DNA of 19,099 bases, from IMG/VR virus record IMGVR_UViG_3300031673_005827; one strand, 5' to 3'. The notes beneath the pieces are model-generated. The model saw only the letters and a program-made list of their open reading frames with translations. It was not told the DNA's origin and made no database searches. Below, in pieces: positions 15,452-18,932 of the stretch. A program made the translations under genes and the position numbers. This DNA is from a virus. Position 1 is the stretch's first letter. Each line of letters starts with the position of its first letter.

Positions 15452-15764
15452 GTGTTGGACCGACCGGCCGTCCTCCCTGCCCATGGCTTGGTCAGGTCCT
15501 TTCCCACGGACCCCGGTCGGTCCTTGACAACAACGAGGGGAGCGACGTAGGCTACTCGACAACATAGCTGACCTCCGGGCGCCTCGGAGGTGTGTCTGCC
15601 ACCATTCTCCGTTTCCCACCGCACCTGGGCCAATCGGCAGACACACCCTCGGGGCGCCCGGTCTCTTTAATGAGACACACTCGAAAAACCTCATAACAAA
15701 ATCAGGATTCCTCTTGATCGCGACGCAGTATCTGGTATACTGCTAACACGAAAGAGAGGTTCCC
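15452..15764. promoter_or_regulatory. Structured 313-bp non-coding region carrying nested inverted repeats, direct repeats and the first copy of the conserved promoter/operator module.
   Basis: An 11-bp perfect inverted repeat, GGACCGACCGG (15459-15469) with CCGGTCGGTCC (15515-15525), is followed by TTGACA. A direct repeat CT[TC]GACAACA occurs at ~15525 and ~15556. A hairpin ACCTCCG-N7-CGGAGGT lies at 15573-15593. A 12-bp perfect inverted repeat, GGTGTGTCTGCC (15591-15602) with GGCAGACACACC (15638-15649), extends to ~22 bp with 3 mismatches. The promoter TTGATC (15714-15719), N16, TATACT (15736-15741) carries the palindrome GCAGTAT-ctggt-ATACTGC (15725-15743). Confidence 0.6.
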
Positions 15765-16013
15765 ATGGCCACGAACGAACTGACGGCGGAAGAGAAGGCT
15801 CTGGTTTACCTGGCGGCTTGTGACTGCCTCCGCTACGACGCGGCCCGTGACGAGAAGTCACAGATCAAGCGGTCGGCCCTGCGCGAGTTCTTCATCGACG
15901 TCTTCGACGAGGACAGCTGGGACGAGGCGATGCACGAGGCGATGAAGGTCGAGTCGATGGAACAGCAGGACGCCGCGAACGAGGCCGCCGAGCGGGCGCA
16001 CCCGATCGGTTGA
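15765..16013 (+). CDS. Small, highly acidic protein of 82 aa. It is a candidate early or anti-defence DNA-mimic-like protein; the function is unknown.
   Basis: It is the first gene after the conserved promoter and has a GAGAGG ribosome-binding site. It is D/E-rich (DVFDEDSWDEAMHEAMKVESMEQQD). Confidence 0.6.
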   Translation: MATNELTAEEKALVYLAACDCLRYDAARDEKSQIKRSALREFFIDVFDEDSWDEAMHEAMKVESMEQQDAANEAAERAHPIG

Positions 16014-16015
16014 TT

Positions 16016-16071
16016 TTCTTCACAAGTTTTTCAGATTGACTCTTGACTGGGGTGCAGTATCTGGTATACTG
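16016..16071 (+). promoter_or_regulatory. Second copy of the conserved promoter/operator module. It has duplicated TTGACT -35 elements (16035-16040 and 16042-16047), an extended -10 element TGGTATACT (16061-16069) and the operator palindrome GCAGTAT-N5-ATACTGC (16053-16071). A partial upstream palindrome TTCTTCACAAGTTTTTC lies at 16016-16032.
   Basis: Seen directly. There are 16 nt between the -35 and -10 elements. An AGGGAGGA ribosome-binding site precedes the ATG at 16095. Confidence 0.7.
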
Positions 16072-16094
16072 CTACCAGACAAGGGAGGACAAGC

Positions 16095-17108
16095 ATGACG
16101 AAGCGAGTGAAGAACGAGACGCGACCGAACACGGCCGACCTGCTCGACCTCAACGAGTACGACCTGTTCATCGTCAGCTTCTCGGGCGGCAAGGACTCGC
16201 TCGCGATGGTGCTCGACCTCCTGGAGCGCGGTGTCGACAAGGCGAAGATCCAGCTCTGGCACCAGCGGATCGACGGTGAGACCGACGAGCGCCTGATGGA
16301 CTGGAACGTGACCGAGGCGTACTGCGAGACCGTCGCGAGGCACCTCGGCATCCGCCTGCTGTACCAGTGGAAGGACCAGGGCTTCGAGGGCGAGATGCTC
16401 CGCGAGGACGCGATGACCAAGGGTGCGTACTTCGAGACACAGGACGGCGAGATCAAGTACGCCGCGCCGAGCGCCCGTGGCAAGAAGGCCACCCGCCGCA
16501 AGTTCCCCCAGGTGTCGGCCGACCTGTCGGTCCGCTGGTGCTCGTCCTACCTCAAGATCGACGTCTGCACGCGAGCGATCAACAACGACCCGGCGCTCAA
16601 GGGCAAGAAGCTCTGCGTCCTCACCGGTGAGCGGCGTGAAGAGTCGGCGAACCGGGCTCGCTACGCCGAGGTCGAGTCACACAAGTCGAACACGAAGAGC
16701 CGCACCGTCCACCAGTGGCGCTCGGTCATCGACTGGAGCGAGCAGCAGGTGTGGGACATCATCAAGCGCTGGTCGATCAACCCGCACCCGGCATACCACC
16801 TGGGTTTTGGCCGCGTCAGCTGCATGGCCTGCATCTTCGGCGACAAGAACCAGTGGGCGACGATCCGCGCCCTCGACCCGACGCGCTTCGAGAAGATCGC
16901 GTCGTACGAGACTGAGTTCGACTGCACGATCAAGCGCAAGACGTCGATCGTCGAAGAGGCCGATAAGGGCGCGGTGTACGAGCAGATCGAGAGCGAGACG
17001 CGGCAGGCGACGCTCGCGATGTCGACGCAGTACCCGGCGTTCATGGTGACGGTCAAGGACTGGGAACTTCCGGCGGGCGCCTTCCGCTCGTGCGGCGGAC
17101 CGAACTAG
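16095..17108 (+). CDS. PAPS-reductase-family PP-loop ATP-pyrophosphatase-like protein (phosphoadenosine-phosphosulfate reductase / DndC-like fold). It is a possible nucleic-acid-modification enzyme.
   Basis: The PP-loop motif SFSGGKDS lies near the N-terminus (LFIVSFSGGKDSLAMV). The length, 337 aa, is typical of phage PAPS-reductase-like proteins. GC3 is high. Confidence 0.55.
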   Translation: MTKRVKNETRPNTADLLDLNEYDLFIVSFSGGKDSLAMVLDLLERGVDKAKIQLWHQRIDGETDERLMDWNVTEAYCETVARHLGIRLLYQWKDQGFEGEMLREDAMTKGAYFETQDGEIKYAAPSARGKKATRRKFPQVSADLSVRWCSSYLKIDVCTRAINNDPALKGKKLCVLTGERREESANRARYAEVESHKSNTKSRTVHQWRSVIDWSEQQVWDIIKRWSINPHPAYHLGFGRVSCMACIFGDKNQWATIRALDPTRFEKIASYETEFDCTIKRKTSIVEEADKGAVYEQIESETRQATLAMSTQYPAFMVTVKDWELPAGAFRSCGGPN

Positions 17109-17122
17109 GAAAGGGGACGGAC

Positions 17123-17665: not shown

Positions 17666-17714
17666 AAAACTTCACAAGTTTTTCTTGACTCAGAGGCAGT
17701 ATCTGATATACTTC
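17664..17714 (+). promoter_or_regulatory. Third copy of the promoter/operator module. The 21-bp palindrome GAAAAACTTCACAAGTTTTTC (17664-17684) directly abuts the -35 element TTGACT (17685-17690). The -10 element TATACT (17707-17712) sits within GCAGTAT-N5-ATACTTC (17696-17714).
   Basis: Seen directly. The 5'UTR hairpin GGGGC-cggaa-GCCCC lies at 17724-17738, before the AAAGGGGA ribosome-binding site and the ATG at 17759. Confidence 0.7.
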
Positions 17715-17758
17715 TACCAGCGTGGGGCCGGAAGCCCCACCGAAAGGGGACGGGAAAC

Positions 17759-18817
17759 ATGGCACATGAGCTAGTTGGAGACAGGTTCGTAGCGCGGGAG
17801 ACGCCAGGCTGGCACCGGATCGGTCGCACTGCCAAGAAGGGCGAGCAGGCCACGGCGTCGGAGTGGGTCGAGGAAGTCACGAAGGACGCCGAGGTCGTGA
17901 AGCTCCCGATGACCTACTGGCTCGACGGCAAGGAGTACAAGTCGAACCAGGTCGCGATCGTCCGCAAGCCGATGAAGGACGACTACGTCCCTCGGCAGTT
18001 CGGCATCGCGTCTGACAGCTGGAAGCTCGAATCGTACGTCGCCTGCGCGAAGGTCTTTGACAAGCTGTCGGAAACGTACCCCGTCGAGACCGCAGGTCTA
18101 ATCAAGCACGGCGCGATCTGCTTCGTCAGCTTCAAGGCCGAGGAGTGGAACGTGCTCGGCGACCAGGTCATCAGCTACATCACCGTGGCCATCTCGATGA
18201 AGCCAGGGATCAGTCACCACGTCCTGCACACGCCGGTCCGCACGGTCTGCAACAACACGCTGAGCATGGCGATCAGCTCGGCCAACATCAACATCAAGAT
18301 CCCGCACGAAGCAGACTCCCTGGAGCAGATGAAGCTCGCTGCCGACATCGTCAAGAAGTTCCACGAGGCGAAGAACAAGACGCAGGAGCTGTGCGAGGCG
18401 CTGGCGCGGAAGACACTGACCGTCGATGAGGCCGAGGAGATCTTCCTGGCGGCGTATCCCGACCCGGCGATGCCGCGCAAGCTGCGCATACTCTACGAGC
18501 AGTTCCCCACCGAGGAGGAGCGCACGGTGTACACGAAGGACCTCGATGCGGATCAGATGGCAACGATCAAGCTCGCCGAACTCCGACACCAGCAGCTGAT
18601 GGGTCGGGCCGAATCCCTGCGCGAGCTGGCACGCGAGTGCTACGCGAAGTTCGACCGCGAGGATATGCGCGGGACGGCGTGGGCGGCGTACAACGCGGTC
18701 ACCGAGAACTCGGACTGGCGCGAGGGCAGCAACGCCGACGAGTCGTTGCTGTTCGGATCGCGGGCGAAGGAGAAGGCACGGGCCTTCGACGCAGCGGTCG
18801 CGCTGGCGGGCAAGTAG
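17759..18817 (+). CDS. Hypothetical protein of 352 aa.
   Basis: GC3 is high and the start sits in good ribosome-binding-site context. It is followed by an intrinsic terminator. Confidence 0.65.
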   Translation: MAHELVGDRFVARETPGWHRIGRTAKKGEQATASEWVEEVTKDAEVVKLPMTYWLDGKEYKSNQVAIVRKPMKDDYVPRQFGIASDSWKLESYVACAKVFDKLSETYPVETAGLIKHGAICFVSFKAEEWNVLGDQVISYITVAISMKPGISHHVLHTPVRTVCNNTLSMAISSANINIKIPHEADSLEQMKLAADIVKKFHEAKNKTQELCEALARKTLTVDEAEEIFLAAYPDPAMPRKLRILYEQFPTEEERTVYTKDLDADQMATIKLAELRHQQLMGRAESLRELARECYAKFDREDMRGTAWAAYNAVTENSDWREGSNADESLLFGSRAKEKARAFDAAVALAGK

Positions 18818-18825
18818 TACAGCAA

Positions 18826-18866
18826 CGGCCGCACCACCAGACAGGCCGGTGGTGCGGCCGTTTTGG
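18826..18866 (+). terminator. Rho-independent terminator with a 13-bp stem, CGGCCGCACCACC paired with GGTGGTGCGGCCG, followed by TTTTGG.
   Basis: A perfect inverted repeat at 18826-18838 and 18848-18860 with a T-tract at 18861-18864, immediately after the stop codon at 18817. Confidence 0.8.
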
Positions 18867-18871
18867 CGGTT

Positions 18872-18932
18872 GAAAAACTTCACAAGTTTTTCAACTTCGT
18901 CGTTGACTCGGGTGCCGTATCTGGTATACTGC
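18872..18932 (+). promoter_or_regulatory. Fourth copy of the promoter/operator module. It has the palindrome GAAAAACTTCACAAGTTTTTC (18872-18892), the -35 element TTGACT (18903-18908), the extended -10 element TGGTATACT (18922-18930) and the operator GCCGTAT-N5-ATACTGC (18914-18932).
   Basis: Seen directly. A GAAGGAGG ribosome-binding site precedes the ATG at 18952. Confidence 0.7.

Follow-up and report, generated by a model that had tools for sequence, protein, structure and literature searches.

A recurrent promoter module with an operator-like dyad over the -10 element heads accessory cassettes in an uncultivated phage

In IMG/VR virus record IMGVR_UViG_3300031673_005827, which comes from an uncultivated phage, four promoter-led units lie in a 3.2-kb island, and the -10 element of each promoter is embedded in an inverted repeat (the dyad). 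This raises the question of what the dyad is for: is it the binding site of a repressor, or does it follow from the constraints that act on a strong promoter? We analyzed the whole stretch of 19,099 nucleotides (nt), hereafter the window, together with its surroundings. Exact-protein look-ups placed the window on metagenomic contigs of 36-47 kb, genome walking covered the flanks of the genes encoded in the window, and the contig span inspected comes to 34.4 kb, merged from two overlapping loci of one contig. With a probability of roughly 55%, we favor a composite module in which an AT-rich upstream element and a strong promoter are combined with a dyad that would serve as repressor operator; this module heads the accessory units and is at the same time a junction of exchangeable cassettes.

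The four copies of the module, P1 to P4, are as follows.

15714-15743, plus strand: promoter P1, with -35 TTGATC at 15714-15719, TGG before TATACT, -10 at 15736-15741 and a perfect dyad at 15725-15743
16043-16072, plus strand: promoter P2, with -35 TTGACT, TGG before TATACT, -10 at 16065-16070 and a perfect dyad at 16054-16072; a second TTGACT is found at 16036-16041
17685-17714, plus strand: promoter P3, with -35 TTGACT, TGA before TATACT, -10 at 17707-17712 and a dyad at 17696-17714 with one mismatch (ATACTTC); the centre of this dyad also carries a G to A change
18903-18932, plus strand: promoter P4, with -35 TTGACT, TGG before TATACT, -10 at 18925-18930 and a dyad at 18914-18932 with one mismatch (GCCGTAT)

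In a consensus scan, these modules were the best sigma-70-like matches in the 19-kb window (10/12 for three of them, 9/12 for the other). All have a 16-nt spacer between the hexamers, TATACT as -10 and a TG in front of it (TGG in three copies, TGA in P3), and the -35 is TTGACT in every copy except P1, which has TTGATC. We thus predict that the four modules are near-consensus housekeeping (sigma-70-type) promoters with an extended -10. The dyad, GCAGTAT-N5-ATACTGC (GCAGTATNNNNNATACTGC), has the consensus 19-mer GCAGTATCTGGTATACTGC and spans about -23 to -5 in all copies. Each dyad ends 22-45 nt 5' of an ATG with a ribosome-binding site of the GGAGG type (genes starting at 15765, 16095, 17759 and 18952). 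The first-pass annotation had described a module TTGACT-N16-TGGTATACT before these four genes, with near-consensus -35 and extended -10 elements and with the -10 inside the dyad at no more than one mismatch. Recurrence, promoter quality and embedding were all confirmed (0, 0, 1 and 1 mismatches), but the formula was miscounted: it has no match even with 3 mismatches allowed, and the true geometry is TTGACT-N16-TATACT, which corresponds to N13 before TGG.

Two further observations concern the same sites. At P2, a second inverted repeat, CTGGTA-N6-TACCAG, overlaps the dyad and extends across the -10 and the predicted start site (16061-16078); it is present with one mismatch at P3 (17703-17720). 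A divergent promoter on the minus strand was considered and rejected, as no consistent -35 was visible by eye and there are no minus-strand genes.

We then asked how often such a dyad is expected. The window contains exactly four sites, while dinucleotide shuffles gave 0.36 sites with 3 mismatches allowed and reached four in 0 of 200 cases. For a fixed right half ATACTGC, the chance of a perfect 7-nt partner within 18 nt upstream is about 5e-4. It had been proposed that the motif be looked for across the complete phage; a scan of the 34.4 kb of contig found the module at the four window positions only, without enrichment of isolated half-sites. The exact 19-mer gave 3 matches in a genome collection, all in unrelated metagenome-assembled genomes and at about chance expectation. 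A metagenome scan for GCMGTATCTGRTATACTKC returned 34 loci, and a promoter context was seen only in this phage lineage (L022 and L047/L048); the remaining loci have no -35 and were taken as chance matches.

The evidence that bears most directly on the function of the dyad is its conservation. Six distinct paralogous copies of the module were compared, namely, the four of the window and two from close phage variants (P2b of L004 and P1' of L047). Mean pairwise identity was 0.79 in the AT-rich upstream element and 0.72 in the -35 hexamer, 0.36 in the 5 nt between the -35 and the dyad, 0.95 in the left half of the dyad, 0.93 in its centre, 0.95 in its right half and 0.43 in the 8 nt that follow. 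The limits of the conserved block are the ends of the palindrome, and the dyad is conserved better than the -35. Indeed, P2b of L004 has a degraded -35 (TTGTGC), yet a perfect dyad. A comparison with L055, which is 69.6% identical to the window over 4 kb of DNA and encodes proteins that are 52-86% identical, showed that this relative retains the 19-mer at three promoters, as GCAGTATCTGGTATACTGC, GCTGTATCTGGTATACTGC and GCCGTATCTGGTATACTTC (0, 1 and 2 mismatches); the orthologous copy of P4 is retained in both L055 and L047. The presence of the same 19-mer in two lineages argues for purifying selection and against the homogenization of repeats within one genome as the sole cause.

The extended -10 explains the right half and the centre of the dyad but not the left half, at -23 to -17. 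Since the left half is conserved beyond the contacts of RNA polymerase, an operator over the -10 is the best reading. We infer that the left half is a functional element, for which a protein bound symmetrically over the -10 would be the simplest explanation. A repressor that occludes RNA polymerase, as suggested in the first-pass annotation, would thus be the most natural mechanism, given the conservation of the left half among the paralogues and in L055.

A different explanation, which we regard as possible but rather unlikely, is that strong promoters were duplicated and that the dyad, without a dedicated binding protein, is maintained by constraints which RNA polymerase or promoter strength place on spacer and discriminator, or by repeated recombination and gene conversion around the -10. 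In favor of this explanation, the right half and the centre overlap the promoter-constrained extended -10, and a cassette crossover maps to the dyad (see below), so that conversion tracts could homogenize it. However, positions -23 to -17 are not known sigma-70 contacts and are nevertheless 95% conserved beside a 36% block, the maintenance of the 19-mer at about 70% DNA identity in L055 is left unexplained by conversion within a genome, and a perfect palindrome is improbable by chance, as calculated above.

The module has another component, which had been overlooked in the first-pass annotation. An AT-rich element (hereafter the AT element) of the form GAAAAACTT-CAC-AAGTTTTTC lies 5' of every -35.

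15683-15703, plus strand: AT element of P1, GAAAAACCTCATAACAAAATC; degenerate, not palindromic, does not fold
16012-16032, plus strand: AT element of P2, GATTTTCTTCACAAGTTTTTC; a near-identical element adjoins the -35 in the distant relative L060
17664-17684, plus strand: AT element of P3, a perfect 9-3-9 palindrome adjoining the -35
18872-18892, plus strand: AT element of P4, a perfect palindrome 10 nt 5' of the -35

P3 and P4 have the element as GAAAAACTTCACAAGTTTTTC, a perfect 9-3-9 palindrome, and P1 and P2 have degenerate forms; the A and T tracts are conserved, and the palindromic symmetry is not. At P3 the element adjoins the -35, whereas at P1, P2 and P4 the two are separated by 9-10 nt (about one helical turn). 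The more distant relatives, which are L017 (RecA 55% identical), L053, L054 and L056-L061, preserve the arrangement in which the AT element is followed by a TTGAC-type -35, a 16-nt spacer and the -10. The conservation of the AT element among them is striking, with GATTTTCTTCATAAGTTTTTC-TTGACG in L060 and GAAAAACTTCAGATATTTTTC-TTGACT in L017. Because it is found in distant relatives either adjoining the -35 or 9-10 nt 5' of it, the AT element appears to behave like an UP element ("UP-like"), and its presence in these phages suggests that it is old. A cousin of the element, TTCTCTTCATAAGAAGATCA, also precedes a dyad-less promoter (TTGACA-N17-TATGGT) at 14025-14096 of L001, which stands before an HNH/NUMOD4 endonuclease gene.

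The units headed by the modules, with the hairpins that delimit them, are listed below in the order in which they occur (aa, amino acids).

15575-15661, plus strand: GC-rich hairpin with 26-nt arms followed by TCTCTTTAAT, likely terminator of the upstream operon
15765-16013, plus strand: gene of an 82-aa acidic protein, the first cassette gene
16095-17108, plus strand: gene of a phosphoadenosine phosphosulfate (PAPS) reductase-family protein of 337 aa (PF01507, E = 1.2e-12; phrog_424, E = 1.3e-35)
17123-17665, plus strand: gene of a 180-aa basic protein, predicted to be cotranscribed with the PAPS reductase gene
17759-18817, plus strand: gene of a DUF932 protein of 352 aa (PF06067, E = 2.4e-24)
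18824-18866, plus strand: intrinsic terminator, a GC-rich hairpin and a T run (-33.1 kcal/mol, z = -5.1)
18952-19099, plus strand: start of a 501-aa gene (phrog_2319), the first of a long run of small genes that continues past the window end

The hairpin at 15575-15661 is very stable (-55.8 kcal/mol, z = -6.95) and, as the likely terminator of the upstream operon, would form the left border of the cassette island. No terminator was found between P1 and 18824, so that P1, P2 and P3 probably give nested transcripts that end together there; in that case, DUF932 would be transcribed from three promoters. A small GC hairpin (GGGGC-CGGAA-GCCCC, 17724-17738), which the other units do not have, falls in the 5' untranslated region predicted for DUF932 transcripts that start at P3. 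Farther downstream, in the operon driven by P4, a 187-aa protein (L001 15070-15633) shows weak matches to Lar-like restriction-alleviation proteins (PF14354, E = 7.7e-5, below the cut-off; phrog_599, E = 2.1e-7), which hints at anti-defence functions.

This arrangement bears on the idea that the palindromes act as hairpins in read-through transcripts, in attenuation, processing or 3'-end stabilization. P2 and P3 do lie on read-through paths from P1, and the consensus 19-mer and the AT palindrome fold at -6.5 and -5.3 kcal/mol, respectively. However, variant copies lose the fold (-1.1, -2.1 and 0 kcal/mol, the first two being the dyad variants), compensatory changes are absent, the hairpins are not followed by a U tract, and no Rfam match was obtained. 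On the basis of the variants that do not fold, we rejected an RNA-hairpin role for either palindrome; it is the least credible of the explanations weighed here.

Apart from regulation, the modules are the junctions where close relatives gain, lose or swap cassettes. L004 has a fifth module and an extra cassette of 1.7 kb (encoding a 455-aa PAPS-reductase-like protein and a 100-aa protein), and L009, from another sample, shows the same arrangement. Up to and including the dyad, P2 of the window and everything upstream of it is identical to P2a of L004; from the dyad on, the identity is with P2b. Nothing but the 19-mer is shared at this junction and, since the bases that flank it differ between the two L004 copies, the crossover of the indel lies inside the dyad. 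In L047, a different cassette, which has a P1 allele of its own, takes the place of positions 15670-18758; to the left, the two sequences are identical as far as 15669, and to the right, identity begins again at about 18759, in the last 58 nt of the DUF932 gene. A fourth arrangement is seen in L055, which has no DUF932 and in which the homologue of the 180-aa gene has a promoter module of its own. The DUF932 cassette is thus absent from both L047 and L055. From these comparisons, the modules appear to act as short homology patches for the gain, loss and replacement of cassettes. Separately, the hairpin before P4 (18824-18862) is the exact reverse complement of L047 11207-11245, pointing to a hairpin flip or an inversion between close variants.

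A crossover inside the dyad could also mean that a site-specific recombination system uses the dyad as its core site to excise and insert promoter-led cassettes, regulation being secondary. In favor of this, the junction between L004 and the window falls exactly within the 19 bp, and four cassette arrangements exist among close relatives. We consider it very improbable, however: no recombinase gene was recognized in the 34.4 kb, the other junctions lie after the terminator (15669) and in the 3' end of DUF932 (about 18759) and not in the dyad, and the dyad is the longest perfectly shared stretch, so that homology-driven exchange predicts the same junction. We give equally little credence to a dual-purpose dyad that would be an operator and also the core site of a dedicated, integron-like recombination system moving promoter-led cassettes into and out of the accessory island, each cassette contributing a regulated promoter of its own.

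If the dyad is an operator, the island could work as follows. Soon after DNA entry, the host housekeeping RNA polymerase would start about 7 nt after TATACT, resulting in strong expression of the accessory units, i.e., the 82-aa protein, the PAPS-reductase-like protein with the 180-aa protein, DUF932, and the 501-aa protein with many small genes. The nested transcripts of P1 to P3 would end at the terminator at 18824-18866, while P4 would drive the next operon. A dimeric or tetrameric DNA-binding protein of the phage, accumulating later, would then bind the dyads, block RNA polymerase and shut the units off together after an early burst. The candidate binders are a 99-aa protein similar to ribbon-helix-helix (RHH) proteins, encoded by an open reading frame (ORF) at 11836, and a 114-aa basic protein encoded in the P4 unit. 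A further protein, encoded in the window, may be relevant to the AT element.

11836-12135, plus strand: probable RHH protein, 99 aa, with a ribosome-binding site; skipped by the gene callers on the source contigs
8248-8727, plus strand: HU/IHF-like protein, 159 aa, with PF18291 and PF00216 above the cut-offs and a lysine-rich tail

The 99-aa ORF is a real, conserved gene. It has a 62%-identical homologue in the same gene order, with strong conservation of the core RGGRRPGAGR.PKPP.ELMKCISFALPP.TI..IDSEA. An RHH fold is probable, on signals that are weak but consistent: a match to phrog_4738 ("transcriptional repressor") at E = 1.6e-4, sub-threshold NCBIfam matches to VapB, BrnA and NikR, a single match in a PDB profile search (antitoxin Rv0298, E = 0.22), and Foldseek top matches that are mostly RHH, with nonsignificant E values of about 1 and a model pLDDT of 68. 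No Pfam match was found at E <= 0.1. The ORF belongs to a separate transcription unit, whose promoter (TTGACG-N16-TACACT at 11289) has no dyad. The gene of the 114-aa protein comes third in the P4 unit (L001 12920-13264), and the protein is also conserved in L055; RHH-like motifs were recognized in it by eye only, and its structure model was too poor for a meaningful fold search. A profile comparison between the two candidates was not significant. As a speculation, the HU-like protein could bind the AT element. The first-pass annotation had called the RHH protein at 11836 an obvious repressor candidate. It is conserved and probably RHH, but it lies in a separate unit and nothing ties it to the dyad, and we keep it as a candidate that is not an obvious one; a Mor-like protein, also named there, could not be recognized among the window proteins.

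The wider gene content helps to decide what kind of control is plausible. All genes lie on one strand, in the window and on the source contigs. The order starts with a DNA polymerase A fused to a UDG domain, a RecA-like protein, a 5'-3' exonuclease and SbcD/SbcC-like proteins, followed by a 995-aa terminase with an intein signal, a T4-type portal (PF07230) and the HU-like protein, and then by the probable RHH ORF, an 895-aa protein with a major-vault-protein shoulder domain and a 197-aa protein; the very stable hairpin at 15575-15661, the four promoter-led units and the long run of small genes come last. Neither an integrase nor any other lysogeny gene was recognized within the 34.4 kb, which makes a large lytic phage the most likely reading. 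The phage is remotely T4-like, with a portal 22-25% identical to T4-type portals. One of the more distant relatives measures 152 kb (JBFOMY010000180.1), and the genome of the window phage may itself be about 150 kb.

This content is at odds with a model developed from the earlier reading, a lysogeny-type immunity regulon run by the RHH protein at 11836 and similar to stoperators or start-associated sequences (SAS). The model has in its favor the conservation of the 11836 ORF and its coherent weak RHH signals, and two RHH dimers would suit a 19-bp dyad with half-sites 12 bp apart, as in the Arc and CopG operators. We nevertheless judge it improbable. The framing in terms of lysis and lysogeny finds no integrase in the 34.4 kb to support it, and DNA polymerase A, RecA, SbcCD, terminase and a T4-type portal nearby are the content of a large replicating phage. 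Moreover, the motif is local and not dispersed, the promoter of the RHH gene itself has no dyad, and the RHH ORF has no Pfam match. Finally, stoperators and SAS resemble the window motif only in being short motifs repeated before several phage genes. The stoperators of cluster A mycobacteriophages are asymmetric, 13-14 bp long and orientation dependent, occur in dozens of copies genome-wide, and are found at gene ends rather than centred on promoters, whereas the window site is a symmetric 19-bp dyad over the -10, confined to one 3.2-kb island within 34.4 kb. The SAS of cluster K lie at ribosome-binding sites and start codons, whereas the dyad overlaps the -10 and not the ribosome-binding site and ends 22-45 nt 5' of the ATG. 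In symmetry, position and distribution, the comparison thus had to be abandoned. Other temperate phages offer partial parallels: at P-ant of P22, the RHH repressors Arc and Mnt bind a dyad of roughly 17-21 bp within the core promoter, and in phiC31 one conserved inverted repeat is reused at many early promoters. Unlike the window phage, these phages are temperate and have defined repressor genes, and their sequences are unrelated.

Several points weigh against the operator that we favor. Variation within the dyad occurs at positions 3 and 18, where it breaks the symmetry without compensation, so that covariation lends no support; these positions cannot covary freely, because their partners lie in or next to the promoter-constrained -10. 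The lack of compensatory changes is also what duplicated promoters without an operator would show. TA-rich -10 hexamers make small palindromes easy to spot by eye, and a crossover within the 19 bp is predicted by homologous and site-specific recombination alike. With regard to the binder, the RHH assignment of the 99-aa ORF comes from sub-threshold matches, and the 114-aa protein gave no significant match at all, DNA-binding folds included. The span inspected is 34.4 kb, out of a genome of possibly about 150 kb. Finally, L017, L053, L054 and L056-L061 do without the GCAGTAT half, again in line with duplicated promoters alone; the operator, if real, would be lineage-specific. At some promoters of these distant relatives, other inverted repeats lie over the -10, seen without statistics: CCGTATGGTA-N10-TACCATACGG in L017 and ATAACC-N4-GGTTAT in L060. 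TGGTA-N3-TACCA repeats are also present at L017 promoters; they and the CCGTATGGTA-N10-TACCATACGG repeat are related to the CTGGTA-N6-TACCAG repeat of P2 and P3. Furthermore, small helix-turn-helix (HTH) genes of the XRE type (PF13560/PF01381) adjoin strong promoters around DUF932 in L017 and L056-L061; those of L017 lie at 9665-9910 and about 11145-11400, two being uncalled. No homologue of these XRE-type HTH genes was found in the window lineage. Judging from the sequences, this is suggestive of lineage-specific repressor-operator pairs placed on an old promoter scaffold.

Additional features of the phage lie outside these questions. Unusually for a phage protein, the 895-900-aa protein encoded 3' of the T4-type portal (12095/12110-14797) carries the shoulder domain of the major vault protein (PF11978, E = 1.1e-17); it also has a weak match to the Vault_3 repeat. 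The terminase-like ATPase of about 1000 aa (3381-6398) has a faint LAGLIDADG match on the source contigs, which suggests an intein, and the 152-kb relative also encodes an 829-aa LAGLIDADG-containing protein. About 6.5 kb past the window end, an intergenic region of about 300 nt (L001 17813-18107) contains GGGGTCATTTTTTCACCGTCATTGC twice and inverted repeats of the CCTTGTTGAATGTCACGAAACAAGG type; it could be an origin or a regulatory site, and it has a partly conserved counterpart at L055 6516-6725 (82% over 94 nt). No Rfam family and no tRNA was found. In near-identity DNA searches, the region had no match among phage records, and the sole match among plasmid records covered 55 nt of the PAPS reductase gene; no match was returned when IMG/VR was scanned for the dyad, for the AT palindrome and for the portal. 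The 56.5-kb contig Ga0114919_10000071 (L047/L048) was considered as extra genome coverage and set aside as adding nothing: its first and its last 2977 nt are exact reverse complements of each other, so that a fold-back assembly is likely and its length overstates the unique sequence.

How do these modules relate to known systems? The promoter-early stem-loops (PeSLs) of T4-type phages, in which a sigma-70 promoter is combined with a stem-loop and with an AT-rich tract upstream, recur mainly in hyperplastic regions, where recombination between PeSLs shuffles orphan genes (Arbiol et al. 2010, PMC2839356; Comeau et al. 2014, PMC4122927). Like them, the window modules are repeated composite intergenic elements with a consensus sigma-70 promoter and an AT-rich tract 5' of the -35, they sit in a variable region of accessory or orphan genes, and the repeats are where close relatives differ by indels or replacements (the L004 junction lies in the dyad, the L047 replacement starts at the module border, and L055 has a fourth arrangement). 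However, there is no sequence homology, and the phage is related to T4 only remotely. A strong GC-rich stem-loop is present at two of the four modules (before P1 and P4), while P2 and P3 have only a weak AT palindrome, and the conserved dyad over the -10 is an addition outside the PeSL definition. On this comparison, the modules are best described as an analogue of the PeSL with an added operator-like dyad and not as a member. The cassette variants seen at the population level show that modular shuffling mediated by promoters, known from T4-type coliphages, takes place in an unrelated, GC-rich lineage of phages as well. Because the exchange point here falls within a regulatory site, any gene acquired in this way would be expected to come under the shared control from the outset.

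A second parallel is the Reg576 regulon of plasmid p576, in which four clustered extended -10 housekeeping promoters are controlled by one RHH repressor (Val-Calvo et al. 2018, PMC6294495). This repressor binds as two dimers per operator and allows transient expression after DNA entry (PMC6294495). Both systems have four clustered extended -10 promoters within a few kilobases, a shared short repeat and accessory or establishment genes. The operators of p576, however, are direct repeats of TTATCCC, mostly 5' of the -35, whereas the window has a single inverted repeat over the -10; the repressor gene of p576 is among the regulated genes, whereas the RHH ORF at 11836 lies outside the regulated units. 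In addition, p576 is a plasmid and the window belongs to a phage.

The third parallel concerns anti-defence genes. Bacterial acr promoters are repressed by Aca proteins. In archaeal viruses, shared regulatory motifs precede early anti-defence genes (PMC11065993). As in these systems, a strong promoter with a palindromic element recurs in the window before accessory genes that are predicted to be early, and the repressor that stops overexpression after the first minutes of infection in archaeal and acr systems is a further likeness to the mechanism proposed here. By gene content, the likeness is loose, with DUF932, PAPS-reductase-like proteins and the weak Lar-like match downstream. Unlike Aca systems, the island has no Aca-like HTH gene; XRE-type HTH genes do stand beside the promoters in the distant relatives. 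If the 114-aa protein bound the dyad, the layout would be autoregulatory, as in Reg576 or Aca systems. If the dyad is an operator, one protein would switch a whole accessory island, possibly of host-takeover or anti-defence genes, in a deep-branching group of uncultivated phages, and the motif could serve to find more such genes in relatives, as was done for archaeal viruses. Taken together, the PeSLs, the Reg576 regulon and the shared motifs of early anti-defence genes appear to be the best functional analogues of the window modules. The kinds of regulation and genome shuffling seen here are thus known from phages; what the window adds to them is a cassette crossover inside the putative operator.

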